Positions 3,654-43,087 are shown, counted from the stretch's first letter. The stretch is 64,000 bases of DNA from a virus (IMGVR_UViG_3300032167_000002:88286-152285); one strand, 5' to 3'. The notes: generated from the letters alone by a model not told the origin. Made by a program: numbers and translations.

Positions 3654-3693
3654 TAAATATTAGGCCAGGTAAATTCTTACCTGGCCTAACTTA

Positions 3694-18700: not shown

Positions 18701-21700
18701 GAGTGTCGTTGTGCTGATGGTTGGTATATGAATAACTATACTAACGGAACTGATAGATGGACTATGAAAGTTGACTATATGGAATCTTCTGGTTCTTATA
18801 ATGCAGGTTTCGCATCTATGGTTGGTAATGGTTATACTAAGCATCCTTTACAAGACTATTTAGCTTTATTAAATAATACCAATAAATTGGAACCTGTTGT
18901 TGATAGCTCTGTAATTAAGGGTATTCAATGGGGCGATTATCGTACTTCTCTATTGGGCTTCCCAGTTATGGCTTTCCAAAAGACTGGTTCTGGTGATAAT
19001 GCTAAGTACACTTTCATCGGTTTTTATCGTATGCTATTGGATAAGAGCTCTACTCAGGTCTTAGGATTTAAACCTAGTAAGAAAGTTACTAATAAGTTAT
19101 TCCCTAAGGGTTTAAATGATGAAGGTAAAATGGAATATAAGGCAGTACGAGACGTAGCAGAATGTTGGGAGTTCTCTAACAATGCTCGTGGTTATTGCTC
19201 TTATCGTGACCCATGGAGCCGTGTTGAATTAAGTTTCACACCTCCTACTAATTCCACTGTATCTAATGGTGGTTACAATGCTAATGAAGCTCCTGTTGTG
19301 GCTAATAGCTTTGAATATCGCTATCACAGCAAGGATGATTATATTGATATTCTTTACAACTTTAAGCAAGCTACTCAAGGTGAACTTGATGAAGTTGCTG
19401 AAGAGTTAGGAACTGGTACAATTCCTAAGGGCGATTTAGAGGCCGGTGCTAAGGCATTGCTATCTACTCATACTAACTGGGAAAAAGTATGTAAATGGTT
19501 GTGGAGTACTAATCTTGATGCAGTTGTTTCTCAAGGTACTTACTCTAAAGTTCCTGTCGGTGATACCGCATATGAGCCTGGTGTTTACTATGTAGTTGAT
19601 GGTGATTCTTACGCTATTAGTAATGCCGACTTTGATGAAAACACTACCTACTATGTAAAGAGTGAAGTCAACTATGATGTTATCTCTTTAACTGCAGAGA
19701 CTTATATTTCTGGTAAATATTACATCTTAAATGCTGATGGTGAATATGTAATTGATGCAAGCACTTTTGATGCAAATAAGATTTATTATGAGCAGGTTAT
19801 TGAAGACCGCTACATTCCAGTTAATGTATGTCCTGCTGAGTATGTATATGTAAAAGGTAAGTTCTATGTATTAACTGCTGGTGGAAACACTGTAAGCACT
19901 ACTGATGATGTTTATGCATTATCTAATGAAGAATTTGCTGGTGGTACTACTTACTACGAATTTAAAGATGATACTCTAGACACTCTAAATTCTCGTTTTG
20001 ACTTACTGATTGCTCCAGTAGATATTGAGAATGCTACTTATGATGCTAATACTCAGTATTATACTTGGCATGGTATGGACTATGATATGAACGACGCTGC
20101 TAATGGTGTTGTTATTAACCCAGGTCATCCAACCGGTGCAGTCCGCGCGGTCGAAACTCCTTCTCAAGAGGATTGGGCTAAGGGATTATATTATGTAGCA
20201 GCTCCAAAAGAATATGCTGGTAAGGTTTATACTCACGATACTAAAGAATATCGTGCTGCTAAATTTACTAATGAATTTGAAGACCACTTCGACCCTGAGT
20301 ACGTTGCTACTTACTTCGTAATGACTGAAGTTATGGAGTTATACGACTCTCGTGGTAAGAACTGTATGATGGCCTCTTGGGGTCCTCATGAAGCTGGTGG
20401 AGAGTACATCTGGTATCCAATCTTCTATGATATTGATACTCAGTTAGGTATTAACAATACTGGTATTCCTTCATTCGAATTCAATGTTGATGCTACTGAA
20501 GCAGGTAACTTCTCTACTTCTGATAGTATCTTGTGGAACAACTTCTATAAGTTCTTTAAAGACACTTGGATTGTTCCTAAATATAGAAACTTAAGAGGTA
20601 ATGATACTCCTAAGTTTGCTAAATTATTAAATGCAGACGGAACTAGTAAAGCTCCTTTACAGTCTGTTGATTATATTGAAAAGTGGTATACTTTTAATCC
20701 TGATGCAACTAATAATATTGCTTGTGAAGGCGAGCGTCCATTATTAGCTACTAATTTGGATATGTACTTTAAGTATATTACTATTTGTAACCCCAAAGCA
20801 AAAGAAGAGGGCGTTGCTCACTTGGGCGGCGAAGGTTCTGGTGGTGCGTTCGCTGAACCAGACACCGGCACTTACTTCTATGCTTTACAAGGTGACCGTT
20901 CTCAATCTCGTCAGCAGTTCGTTGGAAATCGTCTTGAGTACATTGACTCTTGGTTGACCCAAGGTAACTATGCTCGTGGTGGTGCGAACCGTCTATGGGG
21001 TCGTATTTCTGCTAACAACAGAAGTGACCTTGACTCTGATATTACTGATGTTCACTCTGATAAATGGACCAATAGCGTTGATGACCCATATTGGGTAAAC
21101 AATGTACCTTTTGGAACCAAGACTCACGAGTTTGACTCTGAATATTGGATTGAACCTACTCCAATTCGAAGCGCATATGTTACTGCTGGTGATGACAGTA
21201 TGAACTATCCTTCTAAGAAATATGATGGTATCCATAAGATGCAATTCGTATTAAATGAATTGGAAAATGGTATTAAAAATAGTGACAACTATCCTGAACA
21301 GTTGTTATATATTTATGGTACTAACCAAATGTCTGATTTCGGTGACTTAAGTAAGATGTATTGGACTGAGTTTAAACTTGAGGGTAAGGCTGATAAGCTA
21401 ACTCGCTTGAAGCTTGGTCATGATGGTACTACCATTGACTATAAAGATAGTAATGCAAGTACTAAGACTGAAATTGGTTGGTATAATAAGAAGTTAAATG
21501 GTATTACAGTACCTACTTCACTACCTCTATTAAAAGAAGTTAACTTCTGTAATATTGGTCTAGTAAATGAAACTGCTCTTGATTTTAGCTCTTCTGAAAA
21601 GATGGAAAACTTCAGAGCTACTGGTGCAAGTAACTTAACTTCTGTTACATTTGCAGATGGTGTTGCGTTAAATACTTTGTATTTGCCTGCATCCGTTGGT

Positions 21701-23848
21701 TCTTTGGCCTTAACTCAAGCTAACTTGTTAACTGAATTAATTGGCCATGATGAAGACCATGCATATGAAATTCCCACTTTAAATGTTACTACCGATGAAT
21801 TAGAAGCAAATCCTGGATTATACTTAGAAGGTTTCTTCGAGGGTAGTTCCAAGATGAATACAGTTAAATTTATTGGCGGTAAATTAGGTTATAATAGTTA
21901 CATCATTCTAAAGCAATTGTATACTTTAAATAATAATGCTGGTAATGCCAATGTAACCATGACTGATGTTGAATGGTGTCCTTATACTCATTTAACTGAA
22001 GGTGACGTATTTGATGCTTCTAAGAAGTATTACATTGATAATGGTCACTATGGATTTACTCTGTATAATCCTGATGGTTATGTCTATAATGAAAAGCAGT
22101 TCAATATTGATGTATTGAGTGGTGGCTTGTATCGTGACGATGGACATGGCGGCCGCACTGAGGCTGGCGAATTTGCAGCAGACATTACTAATGTTGCCGA
22201 TGATGCAATTACTATGTTAACCAATTTGTATAGTAATCCTCGCTTCAAGGATGCTAGTGGTCTAAATAGACCTAATATTACTGGTGTAATTTATATCAAT
22301 AATACTACTCCTATTGAAGAAAGTTCTATTCAGGATACTTTACAGATGTATTATCCTAACTTAACATTCTTCTTTGCTAACGTTACTCCTGCATACTCTG
22401 CTAAATTCGTTTTAGTAGATAAAGATACTGGTGCAGAAGGATTCGTTGATTACTTAAGTTCTGATGGATATGGACCTAGTGTTCAGAAGATTAGTCAAGA
22501 AGCTATGGCTGGGGATTCCACTTTGTGGTTTACTAACCCATATAGCTTGTATAAAGTAGAAAGAGCCCACTGGGATTTCTATGGTTGGTCTACTTCTTCC
22601 AATGCCGCAGACAAGAGTAAAATTATTTATGGTGATATCAACGATGATATGACTGACGCAGAAAAGATTGCTGCTCATAATGTAGCTTGGATGGCTGCAA
22701 AATCTAAGCTGTTCGCAGCTGATAAGTTTGACTATCCTTTCTATGCTATTTTAACTGAGCATGAATACGAAGCAGTCTTCTTAGATTACTTCGACCCAAC
22801 ATATAGACAAGTAGCTAAGGTTGCTTACAGTGATAAGGGTTCTTATATGAATGATAATGTTCCCGCACCTGTAAACCTAACTGCCGATGATTTGTATATG
22901 CGTAATGCATTTAAGGGCTGGACTAATGACATTGAAAAGGCTAAAGTTATTTACGGTGAAAATGTTCCTGATGAAGAACTTCCTTTAATCAATGTTTCTA
23001 TGTATCCTGCAACCAGAGATTATACATTCTATGCGGTATATAAGAAGGAAAGTGTTTTTGCAAATGTAACTGACCCAGTGAAATACTTTAATTACACTGT
23101 AGGTTCTAGTTATACTGACGCATATGGTGAAGGCGGAACTTATGATTATTCTAATGGATACATTTTATCTTTGAAGCCTGAATATAAGAATGGCTTCTTG
23201 AAAGGTAAGATTACTTTACCAACTCGAACTCCTTCTGGCATTGATGGTGTAACCGCTGGACAACCAATCTATGAATATCGTGGATTCACTGAAGATGAGT
23301 ATATTACTCATATCTTCTTTGATAGTGCAGCTACTTGTGAAGTTCGTATTATTTACAACAATTTCTTTGCTCGTATGAAAGCTTTGAAATATGTTGACTT
23401 CCCCGCAATGAAGAAGTTGAGAGTTATTAATAATGGCGCTTTTGAAAGCTGTCCTTACTTTAGTAACTTTACATTCTGCGACCCATTAGTATTGATTCAA
23501 ACTTACGCTTTCTCTGCTACTGGTAACTTAGCTGAACCTGTTGATTGCGTATTGAATCCAATGCTAAGAGATATTTTAGGTGGAGCAATTTCTTGGGGTA
23601 TTGCATTGAAAACCTTAACTATTGGTGCAGAAAATTCTCCTTCTCAGTTAACTCAAGAAAAATGGTTAAAGAACAAGAGAGATGTCGCTTGTATCGAAAA
23701 TGGTCAAGGCTCTAGACCTTCTGTCGTAACTATTTATTGTCCATCTGGTATGGAAACCACTTGGAATGATTGGATTGTTGGTGGAGCTAATGGTCAACCA
23801 TTCGTAACCGTTGACAGTATTGATAATATCTCTATTGTCGGAAAATAA
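15797..23848 (+). CDS. Giant virion/tail-associated protein (2683 aa), Asn/Tyr/Thr/Asp-rich and predicted beta-rich, containing no TAG codons.
   Basis: Single uninterrupted ORF. RBS GAAAGGAG 9 nt upstream. Double stop TAATAA. Confidence 0.7.
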   Translation: MSENYGVKFIPVRGYDSKIQRAEVKDGWIYFATDSGKIYVDSQGQRTIMGSAGAAIYYGEVEKPEVNEDTGYATLPKSAVKGDPKKGDLILNSDGGFYKVELIGEENYTCELLSISGTGGGPGVSTTTRPSITLTLDNTNFINGQEAYFHIHAESALEADGVTPVDTTLNVVYSLGTRISDEVIDNYTTQTRTYKTGESDYEGVPGIIDDYIEIGSLLRESSSSVLSVYVQGANHDEKSRTRTVDLSTSALKLSQVSGYNPATRYPTSGFQIKCGVVGSLSKVLDFYYDDMNTPAETRVIEANVANSTQTFTVGTDKATHGYHTVRIELWQNTGTSSNPKRGLGVAPLQYEIAVIETSNANAKPVIWLGDYKAEYYNYDTIQIPFLVWDPANTNSTKVHLYKNNIELESSPREVKDFSKFDYWEIADAEMNALNSYQISCGETDEKFVKREIEFKVVKDPNRDMTVEQAGLLLDFSATGRSNSESAAKRQLWSYTLNGEKKNAIFENFNWYNNGWMMDSSINQSCLRISNGARLTIPFQQMVFAAGVSGQESHTVEMQFRIRNVQKYDNLITNITRYQGDGVWYEAFKAQKDTGYSNYDAYLQATLDPDTYDNLKFQTVEKNINITNVAAGLYDYDATNVKATGFCVGTQDAFFSNGENTVNVNFVEDELINLSFVYQDSLKYLYIYINGVITGVIKSTDPDAFTINSGNFVFDSSNCDIDLYKLRIYNSDLNVNQIVQNFSVDRKNVKIFDQSNAYALAEENNNLKEFQFSYEAMLRYNEAHPNEPLMPYIIYDTGNATLPYSKDDTKYISVEFVNTNLERAYANGELETLARADGLIAEGETDSDKIKEGVRLYYKHHCPSWISTMTSGDKVEFAVQGTSSEFYPRRNYKIKTKVEGEFNWKPIADFTDKEKAELKPEELEKLNAESGLYMEEDSLNIFLNRGPYAEVFVSDKAKLAQDSKYLGHEECRCADGWYMNNYTNGTDRWTMKVDYMESSGSYNAGFASMVGNGYTKHPLQDYLALLNNTNKLEPVVDSSVIKGIQWGDYRTSLLGFPVMAFQKTGSGDNAKYTFIGFYRMLLDKSSTQVLGFKPSKKVTNKLFPKGLNDEGKMEYKAVRDVAECWEFSNNARGYCSYRDPWSRVELSFTPPTNSTVSNGGYNANEAPVVANSFEYRYHSKDDYIDILYNFKQATQGELDEVAEELGTGTIPKGDLEAGAKALLSTHTNWEKVCKWLWSTNLDAVVSQGTYSKVPVGDTAYEPGVYYVVDGDSYAISNADFDENTTYYVKSEVNYDVISLTAETYISGKYYILNADGEYVIDASTFDANKIYYEQVIEDRYIPVNVCPAEYVYVKGKFYVLTAGGNTVSTTDDVYALSNEEFAGGTTYYEFKDDTLDTLNSRFDLLIAPVDIENATYDANTQYYTWHGMDYDMNDAANGVVINPGHPTGAVRAVETPSQEDWAKGLYYVAAPKEYAGKVYTHDTKEYRAAKFTNEFEDHFDPEYVATYFVMTEVMELYDSRGKNCMMASWGPHEAGGEYIWYPIFYDIDTQLGINNTGIPSFEFNVDATEAGNFSTSDSILWNNFYKFFKDTWIVPKYRNLRGNDTPKFAKLLNADGTSKAPLQSVDYIEKWYTFNPDATNNIACEGERPLLATNLDMYFKYITICNPKAKEEGVAHLGGEGSGGAFAEPDTGTYFYALQGDRSQSRQQFVGNRLEYIDSWLTQGNYARGGANRLWGRISANNRSDLDSDITDVHSDKWTNSVDDPYWVNNVPFGTKTHEFDSEYWIEPTPIRSAYVTAGDDSMNYPSKKYDGIHKMQFVLNELENGIKNSDNYPEQLLYIYGTNQMSDFGDLSKMYWTEFKLEGKADKLTRLKLGHDGTTIDYKDSNASTKTEIGWYNKKLNGITVPTSLPLLKEVNFCNIGLVNETALDFSSSEKMENFRATGASNLTSVTFADGVALNTLYLPASVGSLALTQANLLTELIGHDEDHAYEIPTLNVTTDELEANPGLYLEGFFEGSSKMNTVKFIGGKLGYNSYIILKQLYTLNNNAGNANVTMTDVEWCPYTHLTEGDVFDASKKYYIDNGHYGFTLYNPDGYVYNEKQFNIDVLSGGLYRDDGHGGRTEAGEFAADITNVADDAITMLTNLYSNPRFKDASGLNRPNITGVIYINNTTPIEESSIQDTLQMYYPNLTFFFANVTPAYSAKFVLVDKDTGAEGFVDYLSSDGYGPSVQKISQEAMAGDSTLWFTNPYSLYKVERAHWDFYGWSTSSNAADKSKIIYGDINDDMTDAEKIAAHNVAWMAAKSKLFAADKFDYPFYAILTEHEYEAVFLDYFDPTYRQVAKVAYSDKGSYMNDNVPAPVNLTADDLYMRNAFKGWTNDIEKAKVIYGENVPDEELPLINVSMYPATRDYTFYAVYKKESVFANVTDPVKYFNYTVGSSYTDAYGEGGTYDYSNGYILSLKPEYKNGFLKGKITLPTRTPSGIDGVTAGQPIYEYRGFTEDEYITHIFFDSAATCEVRIIYNNFFARMKALKYVDFPAMKKLRVINNGAFESCPYFSNFTFCDPLVLIQTYAFSATGNLAEPVDCVLNPMLRDILGGAISWGIALKTLTIGAENSPSQLTQEKWLKNKRDVACIENGQGSRPSVVTIYCPSGMETTWNDWIVGGANGQPFVTVDSIDNISIVGK

Positions 23849-27704: not shown

Positions 27705-27716
27705 GGTGGTGGCAAT

Positions 27717-30134
27717 ATGAGTTTACAAGTATGGTTACCATTAAATAATCATATTAATAACCAAGGATTAAATACTATTCGTTTTAAAAGCTCAAATGTT
27801 TCTTACACTCAAGGTAAGTTGGGCTATTGCGCTAGTGGCACCATTCAAGGAACTGCCGCAGAATTAAATTCAACAGATGGTTTTTGTTGTAGTTTCTGGT
27901 GGAATATTGCCAATGGAGATAGCTATAATATTAAATTTCCTATTACTAACACAGGTATTGATGATATTTTTAATATGGCAAAAATGGATTATACTTCCAA
28001 TTATGCTATTAAATTACATTGCAATAATAACAAACCTCAAATGATTTGGATTTATGATACTCGTTCTACTTCTGGAGTATGGGAGCTTGGAACCTGGAAT
28101 CATTATGTTATTAATGTTAATAATGGAGATTTCGGTGTATAGGTAAAAGTATTTGTAAATGGAGCTTTAAAACATCAATACAATAGCGCTGATTATAATT
28201 TTACATTACGCCCTGGTACCATTAGTATTAGTGGAACAGCAAAAATGAATGATTTTAGATTATATGACCATCCACTTTGTCTAAAAGAAATTGATGAATT
28301 AAGTAGAGGTCTAATGCTTCATTATCCTTTACGAGATAGTACTTTACAAAGCACAACTAATTATTTATTGTATCCAACCCCTGGTAGTAGAGTAAGTGCT
28401 GGATGGGACTCTTCTTTACATCCAAATGCTATTAATGTATCTGGATTTACTGCAGGGTATAACAGTGGTGTTGATTCACCAACAATTGGTTATCATGCCT
28501 ATTGGAATGTTATAGATGACGTGCCTACAATGGTGTTTCCAAATTTAAATTCAGCATATAATTATAAAGGCCGTTGGTTAGGAATTTCTTCATGGGGTAC
28601 TGTTAATTTAGCGTAGGCGATTGGTAAAGGTAATAAATATACTATTTCTTTTGAAGCTAAAAGTGATATAAAAGGTAAAACAGTACAGTTTGGTTTATAT
28701 TATAGAAAAAATGGAGCAACTTCAAATAACTTCCATGATGGACAACATTAGTAGAGCTTAACTACAACTTGGAAAAAATATTCATACACTTGGACTCTTG
28801 GACAAGACGGTGATAGTTCTAATGTGGGAGCAGTATATATGTATGGTCATTATGGTATTGAAGGAACTGCTTATGTAAGAAATATTTAGTTAGAAATTAA
28901 TGACCATGCAACAGATTATGTTTCTGGTAGTAGAGAAGCTTCTAAGGTCTATGACTGTTCGGGTTTTGGACATCACGGTCGTGTAGTAGGAGCAGTATCG
29001 ATGATGCCAGATTCTAGTCGCAATAAATATTCTGCATACATCACAGATGGTCGTAGTAATTATATTGCAAGTGATACTATGATATTTCCAAAAGATAGTA
29101 TAACTATGAGTTGCTGGGTTAAAGGTAGTAACGCAGGATATAGTAATTATCATATTCCATTAAGCTTTGGTAGTGCTAATTATGAATTTTCATTGGAGGG
29201 AACGACTGGTAAATTCCGCGCTGGATATGTTATTAGTGGAACTCGCTAGTGCGTAACAACAAATGGTACTACTATTGATGGGAAATGGCATATGATTACA
29301 TCTACATTTGATGGAACAACTATTCGTAGATATGTTGATGGAATACCTTTAACATCTACTGCGGCCGCAGGTACTTTATCCGGTGGTACTGGTAATTTAT
29401 TGGTTGGTAATTATAATGGTACTACATATGGTAATAGTAAATTATATACTAGTGATGTTAGAATTTATGCTACAGCACTAGATGAACTATAGATTAAAGA
29501 ATTATATTTAAATGGTGCCACTGTAGATAATGGTGGTAATGTTTATGCTTATGAGTTCACTGAAGAGGGCGACAACTCAGTCTTTAAAGAAGGAGTAGTT
29601 GACTTTGAGAATTTTATTGAGTATAATATTAATAAGATAATGAGATATGATGGTGATTTGTGGGTACAAATTTTACATCATAATAATAGAGCTGGTACTA
29701 AGTATTTTACACCATCTAATGCCGCCAATCATACAGAAGAAGACTTATATAGTAGGCTTTATTTAACTGAATAGTTAAGAGGAGCTGATGGTGCATTTGA
29801 ATTTTTAGTTTTGCAACCTGATGATGATGCAGGTACTGTATATAGATGGATTCAAACAAATAATCCAAACAATACAACTTCTGTAACAGGATTTAAAAAC
29901 ATTTCTAATATGAGTGGAGGATTAGTAAAATGCTCGGGTAATACTCATTGGGCAATTTCAACCTCTACTGGAAATTGGTGGAATGCAGTGGGATGCTGGA
30001 CCGCTTATAATGGAGGCATTCCTGGATTTGGTAAAAAAACTATTAAAGGGTCTTTAGATGTGTATGTAAAGTTAGATAAAAGAACAAGCTTTTTAATCGA
30101 CTCTATTGAAACTCAAAACTATTATGAATTTTAA
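27717..30134 (+). CDS. Large tail-fibre/receptor-binding protein with LamG-like (concanavalin-type lectin) domains, about 805 aa. Eight in-frame TAG at 28140, 28614, 28749, 28752 (adjacent TAG-TAG), 28887, 29247, 29490 and 29772. Paralogue of 32793..35219.
   Basis: Frame-3 ORFs 27717..28142, 28245..28616, 29001..29249, 29292..29492 and 29811..30134 are joined through TAG only. The 28617..29000 and 29493..29810 gaps were verified codon by codon. LamG signature DFRLYDHPLCLKEIDEL / DVRIYATALDEL. TAA stop at 30132. Confidence 0.65.
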
Positions 30135-35238: not shown

Positions 35239-38200
35239 ATGGCACAAGTAAATGATTTACTCGTCCTTGGAAAAGCTAATTTTTTAAATGAGATAACTTC
35301 TTCTCAATTATTAAGAGCCTTTGGCGGTATTGCAGTAGATAGTTCAACTGAAGAATCTACATCTTTACCTTATTTTTTAGGTATTAAAGCTTTTGCTGAT
35401 GGTGGCAATGTTGTTTGGTCTAGTCCCACGAATACAGCTAATGTAATTAGACTTAATGCTTCTGGAACTTGGCCTATTAGTATTAGTGGTCTTGCCGCAA
35501 AAGCAACCGCTGATGCAAATGGAAGTACTATCACTTCTACTTATGCGAAGTTAAAATCTTATAATGATATGATTCATTCTACAAATGAATATACATTTGC
35601 ATCTCCGGCTTATTCTGGAGCCATTTGGATTAACTATCGAACTGCAAGTGGAGCAACTGATGGTAATATTACTACTTATAATTTTGGTAATGGTAAAGGC
35701 GGAACTGCAGGAGTTACTCTTGTGGCAACAACTTTTAATGGCAATGCTACCAGCGCTAATTATGCAACTTCTGCTGGTAATGCAAACACTTTAGATAATA
35801 TTGATTCTACTGGATTCTTAAGATATTACAATAGTAATACTGCAATATCATCTACTGAAGTTGTTAATACTCCATCTTATGTACATACGGTTAGTACAAC
35901 AGGTGGAAATATTACAACATCTGTGAAACCCTCTGGCATGAACAATGCATGGGGACTTATTCACTTACATACTCATACTGGTAATTACGCTACCTAGTTA
36001 GGTTTCGGTGGCACAACTGGAAATTTATATATGCGCAATGCTTATAATTCTGCAACTTTTGGTAGTTGGAAAACTATTCTTGATTCTGGAAACTGGACAA
36101 GCATTGTCGATGGAAGATATTTAAAATTATCAGGCGGAACAATGACTGGCTTAGTGTCATATAAAACCACAAATTATACTTCTACTCCAATGGCAATATA
36201 TGATGACGGAACAAATTATGGACATAGCTTAGTTATTGGTGCTGGCGGCACTACTTATATTGGAGCTGGTGAGGCTGCTAGTACTTTATATTCAACAAAA
36301 CTAAAAGTTACTTCTACTGAGGATTTAATTCTCGGTGCAGACAGTAATATTAGATTTCATACGAATGCAGATAATGCAACCACCACGAATGGAGTAACTC
36401 TTAATACCTCCAATTATTTTTATCCATAGACAACTAACACTGGTAGTGTTGGTACTTCTGGTAATAAATGGGGTTCCATGTATGCCACAACCTTTTATGG
36501 AGCTTTAAGTGGTAATGCTACAACAGCTAGTGCTTTAACTCCGATTACTACAAATGATTTAGCTTCTAGTAGTACGACTAAAAGACGCATTTGGTTTTGT
36601 TATGATAATAATACAACAGGTCGACCTGCTTATGATGATAGATTTACAATTCAAACTTCTACTGGAACATTATTTGCTCCAATTTTTAGTGGTAATTTAA
36701 GTGGTAATGCAACAACAGCAACTACTGCCAATGCCTTAGCAAGTACTGGTTATGGTAATGGTAATTTTACTTGGTTTCAAACTTCTGGAGAGTTCGCTGG
36801 CAATAGCGGATGGGCATCTTATTTAGTTTCTAATCATGGAGATGGCTCTAGTTATTATCATTAGATTATTGCTATACCATTTTGGGATCCTCCAAAATAT
36901 CGCCGCATGGAGGGTAATACTAGTACCGTTAAAGGCTGGTATGATTTTATTACTGATGAAAATTATACTACCAAGTTAGATGCTCGATATTACACCGAAG
37001 CAGAAGCCGATAGCCGTTTTGTAAATGTAACTGGCGATTCCATGAGTGGAACGTTAAGTTGGAGCGGAAATATTTCAAGTTTAAATTTCCGCACTGGACA
37101 TAGTGATTATGATGGTGTAATTAGTTATCAAACAAGTGGTAATGAAGCTATGTTATTTACTACTAAAAACGTAGTTACGAGTTTTATGTTTGTTAATGGT
37201 GAAGACACTATTACTAATATGGCTGCTGATAGATGGACTAAAATAACTCCCGGTTTACAAATTAAAAATAATTGTGTTGCGATTGGTAAATTAATTGCTA
37301 ATGGTAGTACTCCCAGTTATAAACTAGAAGTAGCTGGAATGACATATTCTTCAGGTCGTTACTTATCTGAAACAGTACCTTCTTCTTGGATTGATGGTTA
37401 GCGTTATAATAACGGTGCTTATAATGTAAATACTTATTCTAATGATGGCAGCTATAATCCTTGGATACGTGCAACTAATAGTCATGCTAATGTTGCTAAG
37501 TGGTTTAGTTTTGGTACATTAGGCAAACAATTTTATTGGATTGGTTCTACTACGAGTCGTACTGAAAATAGTTATGATAAAGGTATGTCATTTAATGTTG
37601 AATCTGGTTTATTATATGCTCCAATTGTTGGTGGCGATAGAATTTATACTGGCTATGATGCTGGAGTAACTGGCTCTGTATCTTGTTCTAATTGGTTCCG
37701 TTCAAGTGGCGCAACAGGTTGGTATAATGCTTCTTATGGTAATCATTTATACCCAAATACTGTAACAGGTTATGGCGGTTTTATGATGTATGGTAATGTT
37801 AGAGGTGGATATGAAGGCATTATTCTTGGTAATAGTACTAGTTATATGACATTGATGTCAAGTGACCCTCATCAAGGATTGTATAATGAAGCAAAAGGAC
37901 GTTGGATTATTTATTATAATAAAACTAATAATCAAACTTCTGTAAATGGCGCTTAGACTTCAGCAACAGCTTTTCCATTTACTATTTTTGGTGCAACTTA
38001 TATTGATGGTCGTTTGGTTGTAAAAGGCAATGGTTCTTCTTATAATGAAGGTATTCGTGTTTTACCTGCATCAAATGGATGGTCTAACTTATTCTTCTCT
38101 GGAACGAATACTGTAGAAGGCACTCATGATGGCGGTTGGTTAATCGGTCGTAGGGGAACAGCTGGAAGTACTTATGGTGCAGTTGGAGATTTCTGTATTG

Positions 38201-38766
38201 AAAATAATAATAGTGTTGGAAGTAATTTAACGTTAACTAAAGCTGGTATTTTAGTTAATATTGGACCAATCTTTGGCTATAGATATAAACAAACTAGTAA
38301 TGGCGCTGCTTTTATGTGGGATAAACCTGGTAGTAATTACACTGGTATGGGCGCTAATGATTCTAGTGACACTATTCAATTTAGAGCTTGCGATATCGCT
38401 GGTAATTGGGTAGATTATAAACAACATTGGAATTTCTATGGTGATTTATTTGCTTATGGCGCAAGATTTGCAAATAGAGGTACTTCAACATCTACTTCTG
38501 CTTATAGTGATTCAGCAGTTGAAATTCGTGAATACGGTTTTGGCGGCGCTCAATCTGATACTTGGGGAGTTGCTCCTCGTTTAAGTTTCCATTGGAGTGG
38601 ACGTGTTGCAGCGCAAATAGGTCTTGCTTCTAACGGTAAATTATATATCAATAATAATACTCAAGGAAGTACTACATTCTTACAAATTGTCGGTATGACT
38701 GGCTATGGTACTGCAGCCCCATCTGGTGCAGCTCCTGCTGGTTCAGTTTATTTTAAATATAGTTAA
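35239..38766 (+). CDS. Very large tail-fibre protein (about 1175 aa). TAG at 35995, 36427, 36862, 37399 and 37954. N-terminus is paralogous to 30525..32777.
   Basis: RBS AGAGAAAGGAG. Six frame-1 track ORFs (35239..35997, 36031..36429, 36478..36864, 36907..37401, 37585..37956, 38014..38766) are contiguous through TAG only. TAA stop at 38764, then a terminator. Confidence 0.65.
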
Positions 38767-38779
38767 CTAATTAATTGTA

Positions 38780-38824
38780 TACCTGAAAGATGCTTAAAAA
38801 AGTATCTTTCAGGTATTTTTTTTT
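38780..38824 (+). terminator. Rho-independent terminator (TACCTGAAAGAT...ATCTTTCAGGTA plus T9) closing the tail-fibre operon.
   Basis: 12-bp inverted repeat followed by TTTTTTTTT. Confidence 0.75.
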
Positions 38825-38854
38825 GACTTTTTTCTTCCTATTTCCCGCCAATAG

Positions 38855-38992
38855 AGGTCCTCAAAAAGAATTGTCCCAACACAAAAATAATCTTTATTCC
38901 CTCCTAAAATGGCATTCTCGAGGTCCTAGTGGGAACTCGTCTCGGTCCCCGGTTGGTCAATTTAGATTAATTTTTCGGTCCTAATTTTCACT
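38855..38992. promoter_or_regulatory. Intergenic region with four direct copies of an [A/C]GGTCC motif at 38855, 38921, 38943 and 38986 (CTCGAGGTCC / CTCGGTCC variants), upstream of the 39048 cassette. Candidate regulator-binding or promoter region.
   Basis: Repeats seen directly. There is no ORF and no tRNA-like structure in the region. Confidence 0.3.
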
Positions 38993-39047
38993 ATACTATG
39001 AGGGGATGGATAATGAAAATTTTTTGTATGGAAAGGAGACCTTACAT

Positions 39048-39488
39048 ATGTATTCCAACTATAATTATTATCCACAGCAACCTACACAGACTCCACAAGT
39101 CACCCAATAGCAATCAATGTACTAGATGCCCTATTTACGACAGGCGCCGCCGCAAACAGGACTGAAAGGCCGTTTGGTTAGTTCATTGGAAGAGGCCCGT
39201 GCAACCTCTATTGACTTCGATGGTTCTGTATTCTATTTTCCAGATTTGGCGAACAAACGAATCTACACAAAACAAATAAATATGGATGGTACCGCTACAT
39301 TATGTATGTATGAATTAAGGGAATTACCCATTGAAAAAGAAGAGAGCGCTGTATTGCCATCCGTTGAGAAATTTGTAACGAGAGAAGAGTTTGAGCGGGT
39401 CTTGGAGTATATTAAATCACTTCAAAAGCCAACCGAGCCGGCCGCACCCGCCCCGCAGAAACAGAAAGTAGAAATTTTATCATTCTAA
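39048..39488 (+). CDS. Hypothetical protein (about 146 aa) with a Gln/Pro-rich N-terminal extension containing TAG at 39108 and 39123. The core (from the internal ATG at 39126) has KGRLVSSLEEARA...DFDGSVFYFPD.
   Basis: RBS GAAAGGAGA plus ATG 39048. Frame 3 is open to TAA 39486 with two TAG in a QVTQ-QSMY- context. The track called only 39126..39488. Confidence 0.5.
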
Positions 39489-39498
39489 GGAGGTATGA

Positions 39499-39753
39499 AT
39501 GATGTATCCAGTAGACCCAAATGTTTTAATTCAAATGATTAAATCCGGGCGGAATCCTCAACAGTTGATGTTATCAATTTTACAAGGACAAGCCTATAAC
39601 AATCCCCTCGGAAAAAATCTCCTAAATTTAGCTCAACAAGGTCGAACCGACGAACTAGAGAAAGTAGTTCGTAATATTTACGCTCAATAGGGCGGTTCTA
39701 ATTTCGACCAGGAGTTCGAAGCCTTTAAACGTGCATTAGGCTATCAAAATTAA
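39499..39753 (+). CDS. Small hypothetical protein (84 aa) with TAG at 39688 read through.
   Basis: RBS TAAGGAGGT. Frame 1 continues past TAG to TAA 39751. Confidence 0.5.
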
Positions 39754-39773
39754 AATTTAAGGAGGACACAATT

Positions 39774-40496
39774 ATGTTTAATGGAAAAGGTTACAATTTA
39801 TCTGATATCGCTGCTGTAACTGGTAATCGCAATGGCGATGGTATGTGGGGCGATAATGGCTGGTGGATTATCCTGTTATTCTTGTTCGCAGGATGGGGCC
39901 GCGGCGGATTTGGCGGCTTTGGTGGCGGCTATGAAGCACCTTGTGCTACCCAAGCTGATGTCCGTGCCGCAGTTGACCAGCAAACTTTAATTTCTAAATT
40001 AGACAACCAGACTTATGGTTTGGCAGATTCTACTTACGCATTAAATAACTCTATTATGAGTGGTTTCCATGGAGTAGATACTGCTGTTTGCACTCTTGGC
40101 TACAATATTCAGAGTGGCTTTAACACTTTAGGTCACCAGATTAGTGATTGTTGCTGCGAGACTGGCCGTGCAATTGAGCGTGGCTTTGCAGAGACTAACT
40201 ATAATATGGCAACTCAGGCTTGCGACACTCGTCGCGCAATCGCAGACAGCACCCGTGACATTATTGATGCTAATAATGCTGGTGTTCGTTCTATCTTAGA
40301 CTTCTTGACTAATGATAAGATTGCTACTTTGACTGCTGATAACCAATCTTTGAAGTTCCAGGCTTCCCAGGCCGCACAGAACGCTTACTTGGTAAATCAG
40401 TTACGTCCATGCCCAGTTCCCGCTTATACCGTTCCTAATCCCTACTGCTGCAATACCTACTTTGGTGGATGCGGCAATGGTTTCGGTACTTTCTAA
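39774..40496 (+). CDS. Membrane-anchored protein (240 aa) with an N-terminal TM helix (WWIILLFLFAGW), a Gly-rich linker, and a Cys-rich C-terminal domain (CCCETG...PCPVPAYTVPNPYCCNTYFGGCGNGFGTF).
   Basis: Intact ORF with RBS AAGGAGGA. Hydrophobic segment and cysteine clusters seen by eye. Confidence 0.55.
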   Translation: MFNGKGYNLSDIAAVTGNRNGDGMWGDNGWWIILLFLFAGWGRGGFGGFGGGYEAPCATQADVRAAVDQQTLISKLDNQTYGLADSTYALNNSIMSGFHGVDTAVCTLGYNIQSGFNTLGHQISDCCCETGRAIERGFAETNYNMATQACDTRRAIADSTRDIIDANNAGVRSILDFLTNDKIATLTADNQSLKFQASQAAQNAYLVNQLRPCPVPAYTVPNPYCCNTYFGGCGNGFGTF

Positions 40497-40515
40497 TCTA
40501 AAGGGGGTTTAATTT

Positions 40516-40935
40516 ATGGAAATTATTGCTAATGCTCTTCAGACAGTTCCAGCAAATCAAAATGTTTATTTCACTGATACTGTGATTTGTGGTAATGCTA
40601 CGATTGGTCATCGTGATGATAGTGGTTTAGTTACTCTAAGAGGTTTAACCGACCAATGCCGGGCTAGATTCCGTGTTTCTTTTGGAGCTAACATTGGACT
40701 ACCAGCGGACGGAACAGTTGGCCCAATTTCTTTAGTTATTGCTATCAATGGTGAGCCTGTACGTGCTACTACTATGACAGTAACCCCAGCGGCAGTTGAG
40801 CAATTTTTCAATGTATATGCTTCTTTATATGTCGATGTTCCTCGTGGATGCTGTGTAACTATTAGTGTTCAGAATATTACAACTGATGATGTTGATGTTC
40901 AAAATGCTAATTTAATTGTTGACCGCACCGCTTGA
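40516..40935 (+). CDS. Small beta-rich protein (139 aa), possibly a C1q/TNF-like (BclA C-terminal-domain-like) trimer-forming module.
   Basis: Intact ORF with RBS AAAGGGGG. The resemblance is impressionistic. Confidence 0.4.
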   Translation: MEIIANALQTVPANQNVYFTDTVICGNATIGHRDDSGLVTLRGLTDQCRARFRVSFGANIGLPADGTVGPISLVIAINGEPVRATTMTVTPAAVEQFFNVYASLYVDVPRGCCVTISVQNITTDDVDVQNANLIVDRTA

Positions 40936-40949
40936 AAGGAGGAATAAAT

Positions 40950-41585
40950 ATGCATGAAGAAAGATTAAAGCATATGAAAGAAACTCTAATGTGTGCTGTT
41001 GAAATGCAGCTATGTGATTTAGGTGAGGTAGATACCAAAGAGCTTGGAGAAGCTATTGATATGATTAAAGATTTAGAGGAGGCAATCTACTATTGCACCG
41101 TCACTGAAGCTATGAAAGGCAATGGCTCAGAAATGGAGTTTGAAATGAAAAAAGGCGGCCATCACCAAGAGGAAAATGGTGACAGCCGCATGTATTATAG
41201 TGGCTCTCGCTATCCAATGATGTACGCCGACGAGGGACGTCGTCGTAGAGCTGATGGAACCTTCTATAATGACCCAATGTATATGGACGGCGGGTCTGGA
41301 AATGGTACCAGTTATATGGATAACGGAACTAGTCATATGGACCGTGGAAACGGAACCATGTATCGCGATGAGCGTGAGGGCCGCAGCTACAATAGCCGCA
41401 GAATGTATATGGAAGCCAAAGATATGAAGAGAGATAAAGCTACTCAACTTCGTGAGTTAGAGAAGTATATGCAAGAGCTATCTCAAGACATCACTGAAAT
41501 GATTGCGGACGCATCTCCAGAGGAGAAAGCATATCTTGAAAAGAAGATTACCGCATTGGCTTCTAAAATCGGTCAAATGAAATGA
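40950..41585 (+). CDS. Hypothetical protein (about 211 aa) with a low-complexity Met/Tyr/Gly/Asn-rich repeat region (YMDGGSGNGTSYMDNGTSHMDRGNGTMYRDE) flanked by helical ends.
   Basis: RBS AAGGAGGAATAAAT plus ATG 40950 (the track starts at 40932). TGA stop overlaps the next start. Confidence 0.5.
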   Translation: MHEERLKHMKETLMCAVEMQLCDLGEVDTKELGEAIDMIKDLEEAIYYCTVTEAMKGNGSEMEFEMKKGGHHQEENGDSRMYYSGSRYPMMYADEGRRRRADGTFYNDPMYMDGGSGNGTSYMDNGTSHMDRGNGTMYRDEREGRSYNSRRMYMEAKDMKRDKATQLRELEKYMQELSQDITEMIADASPEEKAYLEKKITALASKIGQMK

Positions 41586-41893
41586 TTATCAATGGAGTGA
41601 GATGGCGAGTCCGAATGGTCTCGCCATCTCATCCAATGCTACTAACCCCTTGGATGACTCATGCTCTTGGAGTTTGTGATAAAGTTACGCAAACTATTTA
41701 CATAGACAAGACGCTCAAACCAGCTAAGGTTAAAGAAGTGCTATGCCACGAAATTGTTCATGCTTGTATGTTTAGCTACGCAGTAGATTTATCATACGAT
41801 GAAGAGGAAATGGTAGCAGAATTAATGTCTAAATATGGAGACGAGATAATCAAATGGTCGAATAGAATTTATAATGGAATTAAAATGAAATAA
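41582..41893 (+). CDS. Small putative zinc metallopeptidase (103 aa) with an HExxH motif (CHEIVHACMF). Minimal ImmA/IrrE- or SprT-like protein.
   Basis: HEIVH motif seen directly. ATGA overlap with the upstream gene. TAA stop, then terminator. Confidence 0.45.
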   Translation: MIINGVRWRVRMVSPSHPMLLTPWMTHALGVCDKVTQTIYIDKTLKPAKVKEVLCHEIVHACMFSYAVDLSYDEEEMVAELMSKYGDEIIKWSNRIYNGIKMK

Positions 41894-41940
41894 AAAAAGG
41901 GTCGTATATGATTTATTCATATACGACCCTTTATTTTTTT
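41893..41940. terminator. Bidirectional rho-independent terminator (A7-GGGTCGTATATG...ATATACGACCC-T-rich) separating the + late module from the - module.
   Basis: Perfect 11-12 bp stem flanked by an A-run on one side and a T-run on the other. Confidence 0.75.
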
Positions 41941-42538
41941 ATGTGCAAATAGCCCACCCAGTAGATGTACCATCTTTGTTAATATATGGAATAGCAACTT
42001 TCCATCCATTAGCAGTTCCATCAACATTGACATATGGTATTGCACTCTTCCATCCATTGGCAGTTCCATCAATATTAATGCGAACTAATCCTCCACCATT
42101 AATCACTGTACCTCCATAAGTAGAGCTATCTCCTCGGTTTCTGATAATAACAATAGTAGGATTTGATTTACGAACAAAATGAAATCTAAAAGTTACTGTT
42201 GACCCAGCGGCTACATATACTCCTCCAAATGTAAAAGTTTTTTGTTCCGTATTATAATAGTTTCCTCCGCTAGTTTTATTGCTTACAGTAATTGTATTGG
42301 ACGTATGCGATGTTCCGTTAGAATCAGTAACAGTTACATAAACATCATATGCATATCCATATCCAGTAACAGTATCTCCCTAATTGTATGTTCCATTACC
42401 TGAAGCAAGACCTATTCTGCATGCAGTTATTAGTTGAGGTGTAGAACCAGTATTTTTATATTTGAGTAAATTTCTACTATAAGTAGCATCTATGCCCTAA
42501 TAAGAAAAACTCCAATCACTATGAGTACTCCATCCCAT
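41939..42538 (-). CDS. Hypothetical protein (199 aa) with two TAG read through. C-terminal tandem repeats of about 13 aa (DGTANGWKSAIPYVN / DGTANGWKVAIPYIN / DGTSTGWAI), possibly a wall-binding module.
   Basis: Not in the track because it is split by TAG. Translated manually from the reverse complement. ATG at rc(42536-42538) and TAA at rc(41939-41941), 600 nt in frame. Confidence 0.5.
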
Positions 42539-42616
42539 TATCTTTTCTCCTTTATCTCTTTTTTAATAAAAAATTTGGTGAAGTAAAAATATAAAATTAC
42601 TTCACCAAATTATGGT

Positions 42617-43087
42617 TTAGACAGGAACCTCATCGTCAGTCTTTAAAGGTAAAGCAATTGCCTTATTATAATAAGTTTCAGCTTGACCATTTCCACCTAA
42701 GCCTTTATATAATTTATAGAATTCCATTAATTGTTCCATCTGGGATTCAGTAATGTATTCTTGGCGTAAAAATCCTTTGCACAATTGGATTAAACGGAAA
42801 CGGTAAGAAGCAACAATTAAGTTCATATGAGATTTCTCTAAGTTCTCATTGTCGCGGCAATACTTTCTTAAATCTTCTAATTCTTGATAAATTGGTTCTA
42901 ATTCAACTTCAATGTGAGTACCAATTCTTTCATCAAGCTTTTGTTCTGCAATAATACGAGCATTTTCTTCGGCTTGGAGTTTTTCTTTCTTTAATTTATC
43001 ACCATGCCATTTTGCCCAACCCATTACAATAGCACTAATTAGACCGAACAAAATTTCTGTTCCCCACTCTGCTAAAAGAGCTTCCAT
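42617..43087 (-). CDS. Hypothetical protein (156 aa) with an N-terminal transmembrane helix (ILFGLISAIVMGWAKW). Possible holin-like or membrane protein.
   Basis: Track ORF. Hydrophobic N-terminus seen by eye. Confidence 0.5.
   Translation of the reverse strand: MEALLAEWGTEILFGLISAIVMGWAKWHGDKLKKEKLQAEENARIIAEQKLDERIGTHIEVELEPIYQELEDLRKYCRDNENLEKSHMNLIVASYRFRLIQLCKGFLRQEYITESQMEQLMEFYKLYKGLGGNGQAETYYNKAIALPLKTDDEVPV

Follow-up and report, generated by a model that had tools for sequence, protein, structure and literature searches.

A conserved six-gene module of unknown function in gut phages

A run of six unusual genes lies between two terminators in a viral genome (IMGVR_UViG_3300032167_000002:88286-152285), and none of them resembles standard lysis or morphogenesis genes by eye. 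Do these genes form a functional unit, and if so, what does it do? A preliminary description proposed an undescribed system, possibly an envelope-remodelling, superinfection-exclusion, or secreted/virion-surface module with its own protease, and likened some of its proteins to spore-coat/exosporium or surface-layer material. To evaluate these proposals, we examined the genes in the 64,000-nucleotide stretch of DNA analysed here (the window), together with their relatives in other phages. All the features of that description were found where it placed them, so the observation is confirmed. Its interpretation is only partly supported, as detailed below.

A six-gene cassette between two terminators

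The cassette is bounded upstream by a terminator-like hairpin on the + strand at 38779-38816 (17-bp stem followed by a T-run) and downstream by a bidirectional terminator at 41896-41932 (16-bp stem with T-runs on both strands), which also closes the convergent minus-strand block. The upstream hairpin insulates the cassette. Its sequence travels with the cassette in two of the related lineages that we compared (numbered with the prefix L), namely L003 and L004, although the gene preceding it differs, being a holin in L004 and a large fibre-like gene in the window; L008 has a different hairpin at this position. The preliminary description assigned the preceding genes to a fibre operon. This is likely but rests on weak evidence, since upstream proteins carry Laminin_G_3/CBM domains, yet the 1175-aa neighbour has no PHROG hit.

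The leader (38817-39047, + strand) contains four GGTCC repeats on the + strand, at 38856, 38922, 38944, and 38977 (AGGTCC, AGGTCC, CGGTCC, and CGGTCC). The window has only 34 GGTCC on both strands, against 42 +/- 7 expected, and the leader is the only place where two lie 15 to 40 nt apart; a search for the repeats elsewhere, which had been suggested in advance, thus found no other cluster in the window, and the leader motif does not recur there either. The Poisson chance of 4 or more + strand copies in 126 nt is about 5e-8 per such window, or about 3e-5 after correcting for the number of windows. Yet the repeats did not pass the conservation criterion set for them beforehand: four occur in L004, two in L008, and none in L003, where the flanks are conserved and the sites are point mutated, and none occur in more distant relatives. 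They are at most a lineage-specific operator. In contrast, a promoter-proximal/5'-UTR block (about 38960-39047; TAATTTTCA...GAGGGGA...ATTTTTTGTATGGA(A)GGAGACCTTACATATG) is conserved in four lineages. A sigma-70-like match, TTCACT-16-GATAAT, lies at 38987-39014 but agrees at only 9 of 12 positions. A search of the leader against Rfam identified no family; two weak trpB-motif hits fall on the terminator hairpin below the gathering score, and we treat them as chance matches.

The six genes are all on the + strand, with TAG read as Gln. Spacers are 10 to 20 nt with GGAGG-type ribosome-binding sites, and the last two genes overlap by ATGA. The first gene, g1 (39048-39488), encodes 146 aa with 9.6% Q and 8.9% P and in-frame TAG at codons 21 and 26. 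An N-terminal extension of g1 from an ATG at 39006 was rejected because its frame is not conserved in L008. The second, g2 (39499-39753), encodes 84 aa and has one TAG, at codon 64, that the preliminary description did not mention; this TAG is conserved in four lineages and aligns with R/K/Q in homologues. These are followed by g3 (39774-40496; 240 aa, 12.5% G and 4.2% C), g4 (40516-40935; 139 aa), g5 (40950-41585; 211 aa, 10.4% M), and g6 (41582-41893; 103 aa, with the motif HEIVH).

Sequence and predicted structure of the encoded proteins

We searched all six proteins, and 20 proteins from variant modules, against Pfam, PHROGs, NCBIfam, and PADLOC. Only PHROGs of unknown function and subthreshold zincin hits were returned. 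PDB sequence and profile searches with g1, g3, g4, and the Cys-His-Asp enzyme described below gave nothing credible. Clear homology to ordinary tail-assembly chaperones or lysis proteins, which had been named as an outcome that would overturn the proposal, was therefore not found. No cassette protein has a holin hit in Pfam or PHROGs, no lipobox gene is present in the cassette, and none of the six proteins matches a PADLOC model at an E value of ≤1.

The g1 protein has a Q/P/Y-rich disordered N terminus, a small conserved beta-rich core, and a C-terminal helix (alignment A7). It belongs to phrog_21718 (unknown function; E value, 3e-10), and homologues lie upstream of g3 in most variants, including those of Clostridium perfringens phages. 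The g2 protein is small, helical, and Q/N/M rich; the form found in one variant of the module (variant B) matches phrog_22984, also of unknown function. The g5 protein has helical N- and C-terminal parts flanking an M/Y/G/R/D low-complexity region, of which the 85-aa central stretch holds 11 M, 10 Y, 12 G, and 12 R. Positional and sequence homologues of g5 with R/G/S/Y-rich middles occur in variants A and B.

The signature protein of the module is g3 (phrog_16490; E value, 6e-51), which forms at least 2,651 clusters at 50% identity and has no Pfam family. It comprises a short N-terminal helix, a hydrophobic core (WWIILLFLFAGWG), a Gly-rich linker, a helix of about 140 residues with a CCC motif, and a Pro/Cys-rich tail. 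These secondary structures come from an AlphaFold2 model of low confidence (pLDDT 45), on which no fold search was run, and neither topology nor oligomeric state can be read from it. The most conserved positions are the hydrophobic/Gly segment, CCC126-128, C150, and the PxPxP...CG tail. The preliminary description called g3 a single-pass membrane protein, which is plausible but not shown. In 107 of 112 copies the strictly hydrophobic run spans 10 to 13 residues and is followed by GWG, and the maximal Kyte-Doolittle mean over 15 residues is 1.57. This run is shorter than the 18 to 21 residues of a typical transmembrane helix, and it may be either a short anchor or the core of a signal peptide, so the observation does not choose between the two.

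The C1q/BclA-like character ascribed to g4 was confirmed by structure: the predicted monomer is a compact jelly-roll beta sandwich superposable on the BclA C-terminal domain, C1q, and TNF, and the fold matches include F-BclA, ExsFA, and TNF-like lectins. Homotrimer formation was not examined, as only monomers were modelled. Sequence membership in a curated family (BclA_C, C1q, or TNF) is not supported, since no Pfam or NCBIfam hit was obtained at an E value of ≤1 and no PDB sequence hit was found. The protein consists of the domain only, with conserved Cys48 and Cys112-113 (the latter pair 97 to 99% conserved), and none of 118 locus copies (127 to 175 aa) carries a collagen-like stalk. No g3-g4 fusion that would prove an interaction was found, and a test of Cys covariation between the g3 tail and g4 was uninformative because the g4 Cys pair is almost invariant.

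The g6 protein is a minimal zincin, translationally coupled to g5, with HExxH plus a downstream EE. H56, E57, H60, and E75 are invariant in 24 of 24 sequences, and E76 is present in 23 of 24, in agreement with a conserved third zinc ligand. It belongs to phrog_1233 (E value, 2.6e-15), but its scores for Peptidase_M78 (ImmA/IrrE), SprT-like, and DUF6782 are below the curated Pfam thresholds (22.2 bits against a cutoff of 27, 18.1 against 22, and 16.8 against 25.6). In most modules g6 is replaced by an unrelated Cys-His-Asp enzyme (pep128 of variant B, not found in the window). Its residues D16, C17, H92, and D103 are invariant in 12 diverse sequences; with no Pfam or PDB match, this pattern leaves its assignment to the papain-like, NlpC-P60, or transglutaminase-like enzymes, and the type of reaction, undecided. 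Profile-profile comparison found no relation between g6 and this enzyme, between g1 and a 168-aa protein of Bacteroides phages, or between g4 and other small beta proteins that follow g3 (c040, a crAss 136-aa protein, and a Bacteroides 180-aa protein). The comparison of g6 with the Bacteroides zincin gave a probability of only 12%.

Distribution and genomic context

The cassette itself, in contrast to its repeats, met the expectation of conservation in related phages. All six genes are syntenic at 40 to 90% identity in L003 to L010, L015, L092, L094, L095, L098, L099, and L135, and the module is found in thousands of gut phages. In over 110 loci, g3 is followed within 14 to 160 nt by g4 or another small beta protein. 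A peptidase-like gene lies in 90 of 103 modules and comes from at least two unrelated families. Carriers include temperate and virulent phages of the dominant gut phyla, with Gram-positive, Gram-negative, wall-less, and archaeal hosts, among them crAss-like phages, phages of Bacteroides, Selenomonadaceae, and wall-less Bacilli, and viruses assigned to Methanomassiliicoccales. All carriers found come from gut, rumen, or faecal sources, although this restriction may reflect database sampling and the limited extent of the pattern scan.

The module is repeatedly linked to lysis genes. A holin (phrog_13712; E value, 2.5e-34) sits directly upstream in seven lineages, and endolysin or holin genes lie upstream in Butyrivibrio phage Ceridwen, Dulem 33, C. 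perfringens phage CPD1, cr116_1, and the Vescimonas prophage. They are also the main annotated function among upstream open reading frames of 56 nonredundant loci. Yet the window departs from this pattern, since the cassette follows fibre-like genes there and no holin was found in the 64 kb, and in Bacteroides uniformis phage C3_41T2LP the module lies among recombination genes. The in-frame TAG codons of g1 and g2 imply translation only once suppression is on, which is a late-gene signature in recoded phages (10.1101/2021.08.26.457843).

A tentative model

We interpret the cassette as an autonomous, horizontally mobile, late-expressed accessory module of gut phages. In this view, g3 would be anchored or exported through its N-terminal hydrophobic segment and would present a flexible Gly linker, a rod about 20 nm long, and a Pro/Cys tail. 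The g4 protein, always encoded directly after g3 and probably a trimer, would cap the g3 tail, so that both would form a “split” version of the anchor-stalk-head design of BclA, C1q, and TNF ligands. The low-complexity proteins g1, g2, and g5 would be partners or substrates, and g6 would be the dedicated maturation protease. The assembly would work on the cell envelope at the end of infection, together with the holin-endolysin system. Lacking signal peptides, the soluble proteins would reach g3 the way endolysins reach the wall, through holin lesions. The role would be in egress or in treating the envelope debris, for example, by binding or masking surface glycans. The range of hosts makes it plausible that the common target is the membrane or envelope in general.

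This model is tentative. Our analysis establishes the gene structure, the conservation and synteny, the g4 fold, the g6 active-site motif, the recurrent link to lysis genes, and the markers of late expression, whereas the topology of g3, its binding to g4, the substrates of the protease, and the role in the envelope or egress are inferences from these. No experimental datum exists for any member of the family. Moreover, holin plus endolysin suffice for lysis of Gram-positive cells, nothing in known lysis systems resembles g1, g2, g5, or g6, and the module is a separate transcription unit behind a terminator. In its broadest form, which we consider rather unlikely, the model describes a previously unrecognised accessory system of the gut virome that works across very different cell envelopes. 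At lysis, a Cys-stabilised g3 stalk anchored in the membrane and capped by the g4 head, assembled with the three low-complexity proteins and matured by the dedicated protease, would complete egress or condition the envelope debris, with the same design used by phages of Gram-positive, Gram-negative, and wall-less bacteria and of methanogenic archaea.

Literature searches for the module, for crAss spanins, and for phage BclA/C1q-like proteins found no description of it, and every component is annotated as hypothetical or mislabelled “spike protein.” A module kept by such different phages must serve a general step of the phage life cycle in the gut, and its repeated placement next to holin and endolysin genes suggests that the textbook two-component picture of lysis in Gram-positive hosts may be incomplete. 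It also supplies a stand-alone BclA/C1q/TNF-like protein family in phages and an apparent case of one protease family being replaced by an unrelated one inside an otherwise fixed gene order. Since cultured carriers exist (Ceridwen, C. perfringens phages, and C3_41T2LP), the question is open to direct testing.

Alternative explanations

Our results support the preliminary proposal of an undescribed, conserved functional unit with its own peptidase, but they did not discriminate among its envelope, secreted, and virion-surface readings. The alternative closest in weight to our model, though still doubtful, is that of moron-type cargo acting in superinfection exclusion, antiphage defence, or lysogenic conversion, with g3 as a membrane effector or blocker and the protease and soluble partners as sensor or activator. 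The module sits in the classic moron position, between the lysis genes and the prophage end or integrase, and has its own promoter region and flanking terminators. Its GC content (0.416 against 0.344) and GC3 are atypical, the latter differing from that of the late genes, as in morons. It is exchanged between unrelated phages, g3 is mosaic with a hypervariable segment, homing endonucleases lie nearby, and a small sigma-r4/LuxR-type regulator of its own lies upstream in many variants. Yet it is present in virulent phages, namely crAss-like phages and Ceridwen, which is lytic in vitro; the TAG codons argue for late translation; PADLOC returned no hit; and three abundant low-complexity proteins are unusual for defence systems. 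Superinfection exclusion in particular fits poorly with the in-frame TAG, the position after holin or endolysin, and the presence in virulent phages.

Somewhat less likely is a virion-associated accessory fibre or decoration, in which a g3 coiled-coil stalk with a g4 knob would be assembled with the help of g1, g2, and g5 and trimmed by g6. The cassette directly follows large fibre-like genes on the late strand of the window, crAss-like homologues were annotated “spike protein” or “viral fiber,” and Cys cross-links would suit an extracellular fibre. However, the most conserved part of g3 is a hydrophobic/Gly segment rather than a docking domain, the same module occurs in podo-, sipho-, and large phages and in an archaeal virus, which have unrelated tails, and it lies after the lysis genes and behind a terminator rather than inside structural operons. 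It is also possible, but improbable, that the Cys-, Tyr-, Met-, Gly-, and Gln-rich proteins are released at lysis and become cross-linked or sticky, forming a protective or adhesive matrix or a glycan-binding lectin; at the extreme, g4 could be a TNF/C1q-like ligand aimed at the animal host. The composition resembles cross-linked structural materials, the gut origin of the carriers and the TNF-like lectins among the fold matches would agree with this, and the Cys-His-Asp enzyme of variant B could equally be a transglutaminase-like cross-linker. Yet this argument is purely compositional, no homology supports it, and it does not explain the g3 anchor segment. The spore-coat/exosporium flavour suggested initially cannot be the function, and a module that alters host sporulation or spores is very unlikely: although the g4 fold matches BclA, F-BclA, and ExsFA and many carriers are Clostridia, the core genes also occur in crAss-like and Bacteroides phages and in viruses assigned to Methanomassiliicoccales, whose hosts do not sporulate, as well as in phages of Selenomonadaceae and wall-less Bacilli, and no sequence relation to any coat or exosporium family was found.

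Relation to known systems

The closest structural relatives of g4 are the BclA C-terminal domain, the F-BclA tip fibrillum, and ExsFA/BxpB of the Bacillus exosporium and endospore appendages. They share only 12 to 15% identity with g4, which has no collagen-like stalk in the same chain, is encoded by phages, including those of nonsporulating hosts, and carries Cys48 and Cys112-113, without known counterparts in BclA, although this last difference was not tested here. To the minimal zincin peptidases of mobile elements (ImmA/IrrE M78, SprT-like, DUF6782, and “PolyVal” metallopeptidase), g6 shows weak profile similarity, and the homologous module of the Bacteroides phage ends with a gene annotated as a PolyVal metallopeptidase; yet no repressor-type substrate gene is adjacent.

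Among lysis proteins, g3 resembles an i-spanin such as lambda Rz in outline, with an N-terminal hydrophobic anchor, long helices of periplasm-spanning length, and conserved Cys, while its Pro-rich, Cys-containing tail recalls the o-spanin Rz1; proximity to holin and endolysin genes and late expression are also shared with this third component of Gram-negative phage lysis. The criteria for spanins are nevertheless not fulfilled, since there is no sequence relation and no lipoprotein partner, five extra soluble proteins are present, and most carriers infect Firmicutes, wall-less, or archaeal hosts, with no outer membrane to fuse in Gram-positive or wall-less cells. The T4 holin T, with its regulators RI and RIII, is likewise a protein of about 220 to 240 aa with one N-terminal hydrophobic segment and a large Cys-containing C-terminal domain that works with small accessory proteins at the lysis step. 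However, there is no homology, carriers already encode ordinary holins as separate genes, and the C-terminal domain of g3 is a predicted rod rather than a globular domain. Finally, the module shares with morons and lysogenic-conversion cassettes at prophage ends its own promoter and terminators, its atypical composition, its position between the lysis genes and the attachment site, and its exchange between unrelated phages, but it is also a regular component of virulent phages and uses late-type recoded codons.

Genomic setting and codon usage

The plus strand of the window (1-41893) carries large structural and tail-type genes of what is part of a large phage genome, whereas the minus strand (41939-64000) carries replication and nucleotide-metabolism genes, namely, those for PolIII alpha, NrdD/NrdG, dUTPase, and a RuvC-like protein. 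Treating TAG as a sense codon fuses many fragmented reading frames into long ones, for example, 1-2892 with nine TAG codons and 35239-38766 with five. TAG is used as a sense codon in many late genes and in some minus-strand genes (further examples are 3673-6678 and 27705-30134), and almost no gene ends in TAG. Since TAG aligns with Q in homologs, the phage reads it as an amino acid, most likely Gln, although no tRNA (suppressor or other) is encoded in the 64 kb. The exact g3 protein, the third product of the cassette, occurs on 22 or more metagenomic contigs of up to 406 kb, and related proteins occur on many contigs of about 200 kb.

Organization of the cassette

A strong terminator-like hairpin at 38779-38816 is followed by about 230 nt without a credible gene. 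Six genes follow on the plus strand, and a bidirectional terminator at 41896-41932 closes the unit. Weak Rfam matches to the trpB motif at 41832-41967 (33 and 27 bits, against a gathering score of 59) fall on this second hairpin, and we judge them to be chance. GGTCC occurs on the plus strand at 38856, 38922, 38944, and 38977. The window holds 34 copies on both strands, where 42 were expected, and no other pair lies within 15-40 nt; the corrected Poisson probability of such a cluster is about 3e-5.

With TAG read as Q, the genes are g1 (39048-39488, 146 aa), g2 (39499-39753, 84 aa), g3 (39774-40496, 240 aa), g4 (40516-40935, 139 aa), g5 (40950-41585, 211 aa), and g6 (41582-41893, 103 aa). The spacers are 10-20 nt long with GGAGG-like ribosome-binding sites, and g5 and g6 overlap by ATGA. 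The observation made in the preliminary description, a cassette of six compositionally unusual genes behind a GGTCC-repeat region, therefore holds, and the compositions match those it described. g1 contains two in-frame TAG codons and g2 contains one. The latter (39688-39690, codon 64) is conserved as TAG in four lineages (this window and the related loci L003, L004, and L008, from the relatives introduced below), while adjacent synonymous sites vary, and homologs have R, K, or Q there followed by a conserved C-terminal segment. It is therefore read through and may be a deliberately kept amber, for example, a translational gate for the operon.

Features of the encoded proteins

None of the proteins matches a family of known function. 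g1, g3, g4, and g6 match PHROGs of unknown function: phrog_21718, phrog_16490 (E 6e-51), phrog_20016 (E 1.5e-53), and phrog_1233, respectively. Pfam gives only subthreshold zincin hits, for g6, and searches of NCBIfam, PADLOC, and PDB sequences returned nothing. In the viral structure library, the nearest neighbors of g4 are stand-alone proteins of 130-143 aa from gut sipho-, podo-, and myovirus genomes, some of them automatically named "BclA protein." Cys112-113 of g4 is conserved in 97-99% of 72 distinct copies, and Cys48 is conserved in 88%. g6 keeps H56, E57, H60, and E75 in all 24 distinct copies and E76 in 23 of them; it is a minimal zincin.

g3 could not be modeled with confidence (pLDDT 45). 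Yet all five models and the family alignment agree on its layout: a short N-terminal helix; a strictly hydrophobic run of only 10-13 residues, flanked by WW and GWG; a Gly-rich linker; one helix of about 140 residues carrying a CCC motif (109 of 112 copies); a PxPxP...GCGC tail; and a median of 11 Cys per protein. These putative anchor and Cys positions are the most conserved in the family. g1, g2, and g5 combine short conserved helical or beta cores with low-complexity regions rich in Q/P/Y, Q/N/M, and M/Y/G/R, respectively.

Conservation and distribution of the module

Conservation of the cassette had been named beforehand as a condition that the initial reading must satisfy, and we examined it by a pattern scan of IMG/VR with g4, which returned 198 relatives. 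In the closest of these (loci labeled L003-L010 and L015), all six genes are present in the same order at 40-93% identity, and in about 65 phages of roughly 40 kb the g3-g4 pair is present. Adding 69 loci from bacterial genomes and MAGs, plus annotated phages, shows four variants of one module. Variant A has the order g1-g2-g3-g4-g5-g6, as in this window. Variant B has a Cys-His-Asp enzyme, then g1-g2-g3-g4-g5 and a further small protein. Variant C, which occurs in Clostridium perfringens phages and the Anaerotruncus prophage, has g1-g2-g3 followed by a different small beta protein with a Cys-rich N terminus. Variant D, in crAss-like and Bacteroides phages, has g3, then a small beta protein, a 170-aa protein, a small R/D/E/Y-rich protein, and an HExxH peptidase.

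g3 is directly followed by the small beta protein in more than 110 loci, with gaps of mostly 14-160 nt, and the two are never fused. A peptidase-like gene accompanies 90 of the 103 modules with enough flanking sequence: 64 have the Cys-His-Asp type, 24 the g6 type, and 2 other HExxH types. The Cys-His-Asp enzyme has invariant D16, C17, H92, and D103. A full HMMER scan found at least 2651 g3 clusters at 50% identity (1281 at E<=1e-10), of which the best 150 are all 116-340 aa long and show no added domains.

The carriers include cultured phages (Butyrivibrio phage Ceridwen, six C. perfringens phages, and B. uniformis phage C3_41T2LP), crAss-like phages, viruses assigned to Methanomassiliicoccales, prophages in Anaerotruncus colihominis, Agathobaculum, Muriventricola, Vescimonas, and Selenomonas, and MAGs of Lachnospiraceae, Christensenellales, wall-less Bacilli, and Prevotella/Muribaculaceae. 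Assignments of phage contigs to MAGs can be wrong, but the isolate genomes and cultured phages already span Gram-positive and Gram-negative hosts. The g3 homologs (phrog_16490) in viruses assigned to Methanomassiliicoccales are those of Caudoviricetes sp. vir215 (locus L089, 4878-5759) and vir335; the vir215 copy lacks the Pro/Cys tail and is not followed by a small beta protein.

Genomic context, regulation, and exchange

In seven lineages of variant A, the gene immediately upstream of the cassette's terminator is a holin (phrog_13712, E 2.5e-34). In Ceridwen, Dulem virus 33, C. perfringens phage CPD1, cr116_1, and the Vescimonas prophage, the module lies 0.5-4 kb downstream of endolysin and/or holin genes, and in temperate phages it lies at the prophage end before the integrase or host genes. 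Among the three ORFs upstream of the module in 56 nonredundant loci, the recurring annotated functions are holins, endolysins or amidases, small sigma-region-4/LuxR-type HTH proteins, anti-repressors, and homing endonucleases. In this window, by contrast, the upstream neighbor is a 1175-aa fiber-like protein, and no holin homolog was found in the 64 kb. A 156-aa minus-strand protein (42617-43087) with an N-terminal hydrophobic segment and a helical C-terminal part matches only unknown PHROGs (4105 and 4257); it was examined as a possible holin, but this was not supported.

A small sigma-70 region 4/LuxR(GerE)-type HTH gene sits just upstream of the module in many 40-kb phages (L011 552-800, L016 3660-3908, and other variant B loci). 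It may be a dedicated regulator, although no counterpart was seen next to the cassette in this window. Homing-type endonucleases (HNH, I-HmuI-like) are inserted inside or directly beside the module in C. perfringens phage CPD1, Dulem virus 33, and Bacteroides phage C3_41T2LP (L001 4185-4808; L002 4073-4624, minus strand; L084 2892-3512), and NUMOD, HNH, and GIY-YIG domains also appear among upstream ORFs.

The upstream terminator hairpin (shared with L003 and L004) and the last 90 nt or so of the leader (shared with L003, L004, and L008) are conserved although the upstream genes differ; the insulated unit therefore moves as a whole. Conservation of the GGTCC repeats had likewise been set in advance as a test, and here the outcome was negative: L004 has four sites, L008 has two, and L003 has none (GGTTT, GGTTC, and CATCC in otherwise conserved flanks), and distant relatives have none. 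The composition of the cassette (39048-41893) looks foreign, with a GC of 0.416 and a GC3 of 0.33-0.41 in five of six genes (g4 is the exception at 0.19), against 0.344 and 0.205 +/- 0.07 for the late genes. In addition, g3 is mosaic. Against L004/L007 it is 75% identical in residues 1-45, 21% in residues 46-125 (39909-40148), and 65% in residues 126-210, while g1, g2, g5, and g6 are 76-87% identical. The divergent stretch, the membrane-proximal half of the predicted rod, looks like an allelic swap or a hypervariable segment.

Possible functions

Our results establish that the unit is a discrete operon, that it is ancient and widely exchanged, that it has a constant core (g3 plus a small beta protein) with low-complexity partners and a replaceable peptidase, and that it is recurrently linked to lysis genes. 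Late expression is inferred from the position at the distal end of late operons, from the in-frame TAG codons, which mark late and lysis genes in recoded phages (10.1101/2021.08.26.457843), and from the presence of the module in virulent phages. The anchor-stalk-head reading is inferred from architecture: the g4 fold is what BclA, C1q, and TNF ligands carry at the end of a trimeric stalk attached to a surface, and in this view g3 supplies an anchor and a stalk but no head. The conserved Cys residues in the g3 tail and in g4 are candidates for disulfide or metal bridges.

None of the soluble proteins has a signal peptide. They could meet an exported g3 only after holin action, which is the route used by canonical endolysins, and this fits the genomic placement. 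We therefore tentatively favor a lysis-coupled envelope function, without being able to separate egress proper from debris or receptor masking. Moron-type exclusion or defense is possible but somewhat less likely, and a virion fiber or decoration less likely again; extracellular cross-linked or adhesive material, or a host-directed ligand, is doubtful, and a spore-related function is very unlikely. These alternatives leave room for an explanation not considered here. The interpretation offered in the preliminary description, an undescribed functional system possibly acting in envelope remodeling, superinfection exclusion, or as a secreted or virion-surface module, is supported only in part.

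g4 is a structural member of the TNF/C1q/BclA superfamily but not of any curated sequence family. g6 is a zincin by motif but falls below threshold for M78, SprT, and DUF6782. g3 resembles an i-spanin or the T4 holin T only in outline. Clear homology to ordinary lysis or tail-assembly proteins would have counted against the initial reading; the module as a whole matches no described lysis, defense, morphogenesis, or sporulation system, and we found no paper describing it. On this basis, we regard it as a real and abundant, but functionally unassigned, kind of phage module.

Two further features of the window lie outside the cassette. The first gene of the convergent minus-strand block (41939-42562) encodes a 199-aa protein with two TAG codons that has no family hit and ends in three DGTANGWK-type repeats. 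At 15797-23848, a 2683-aa ORF without a single TAG lies in the middle of a TAG-rich late region.
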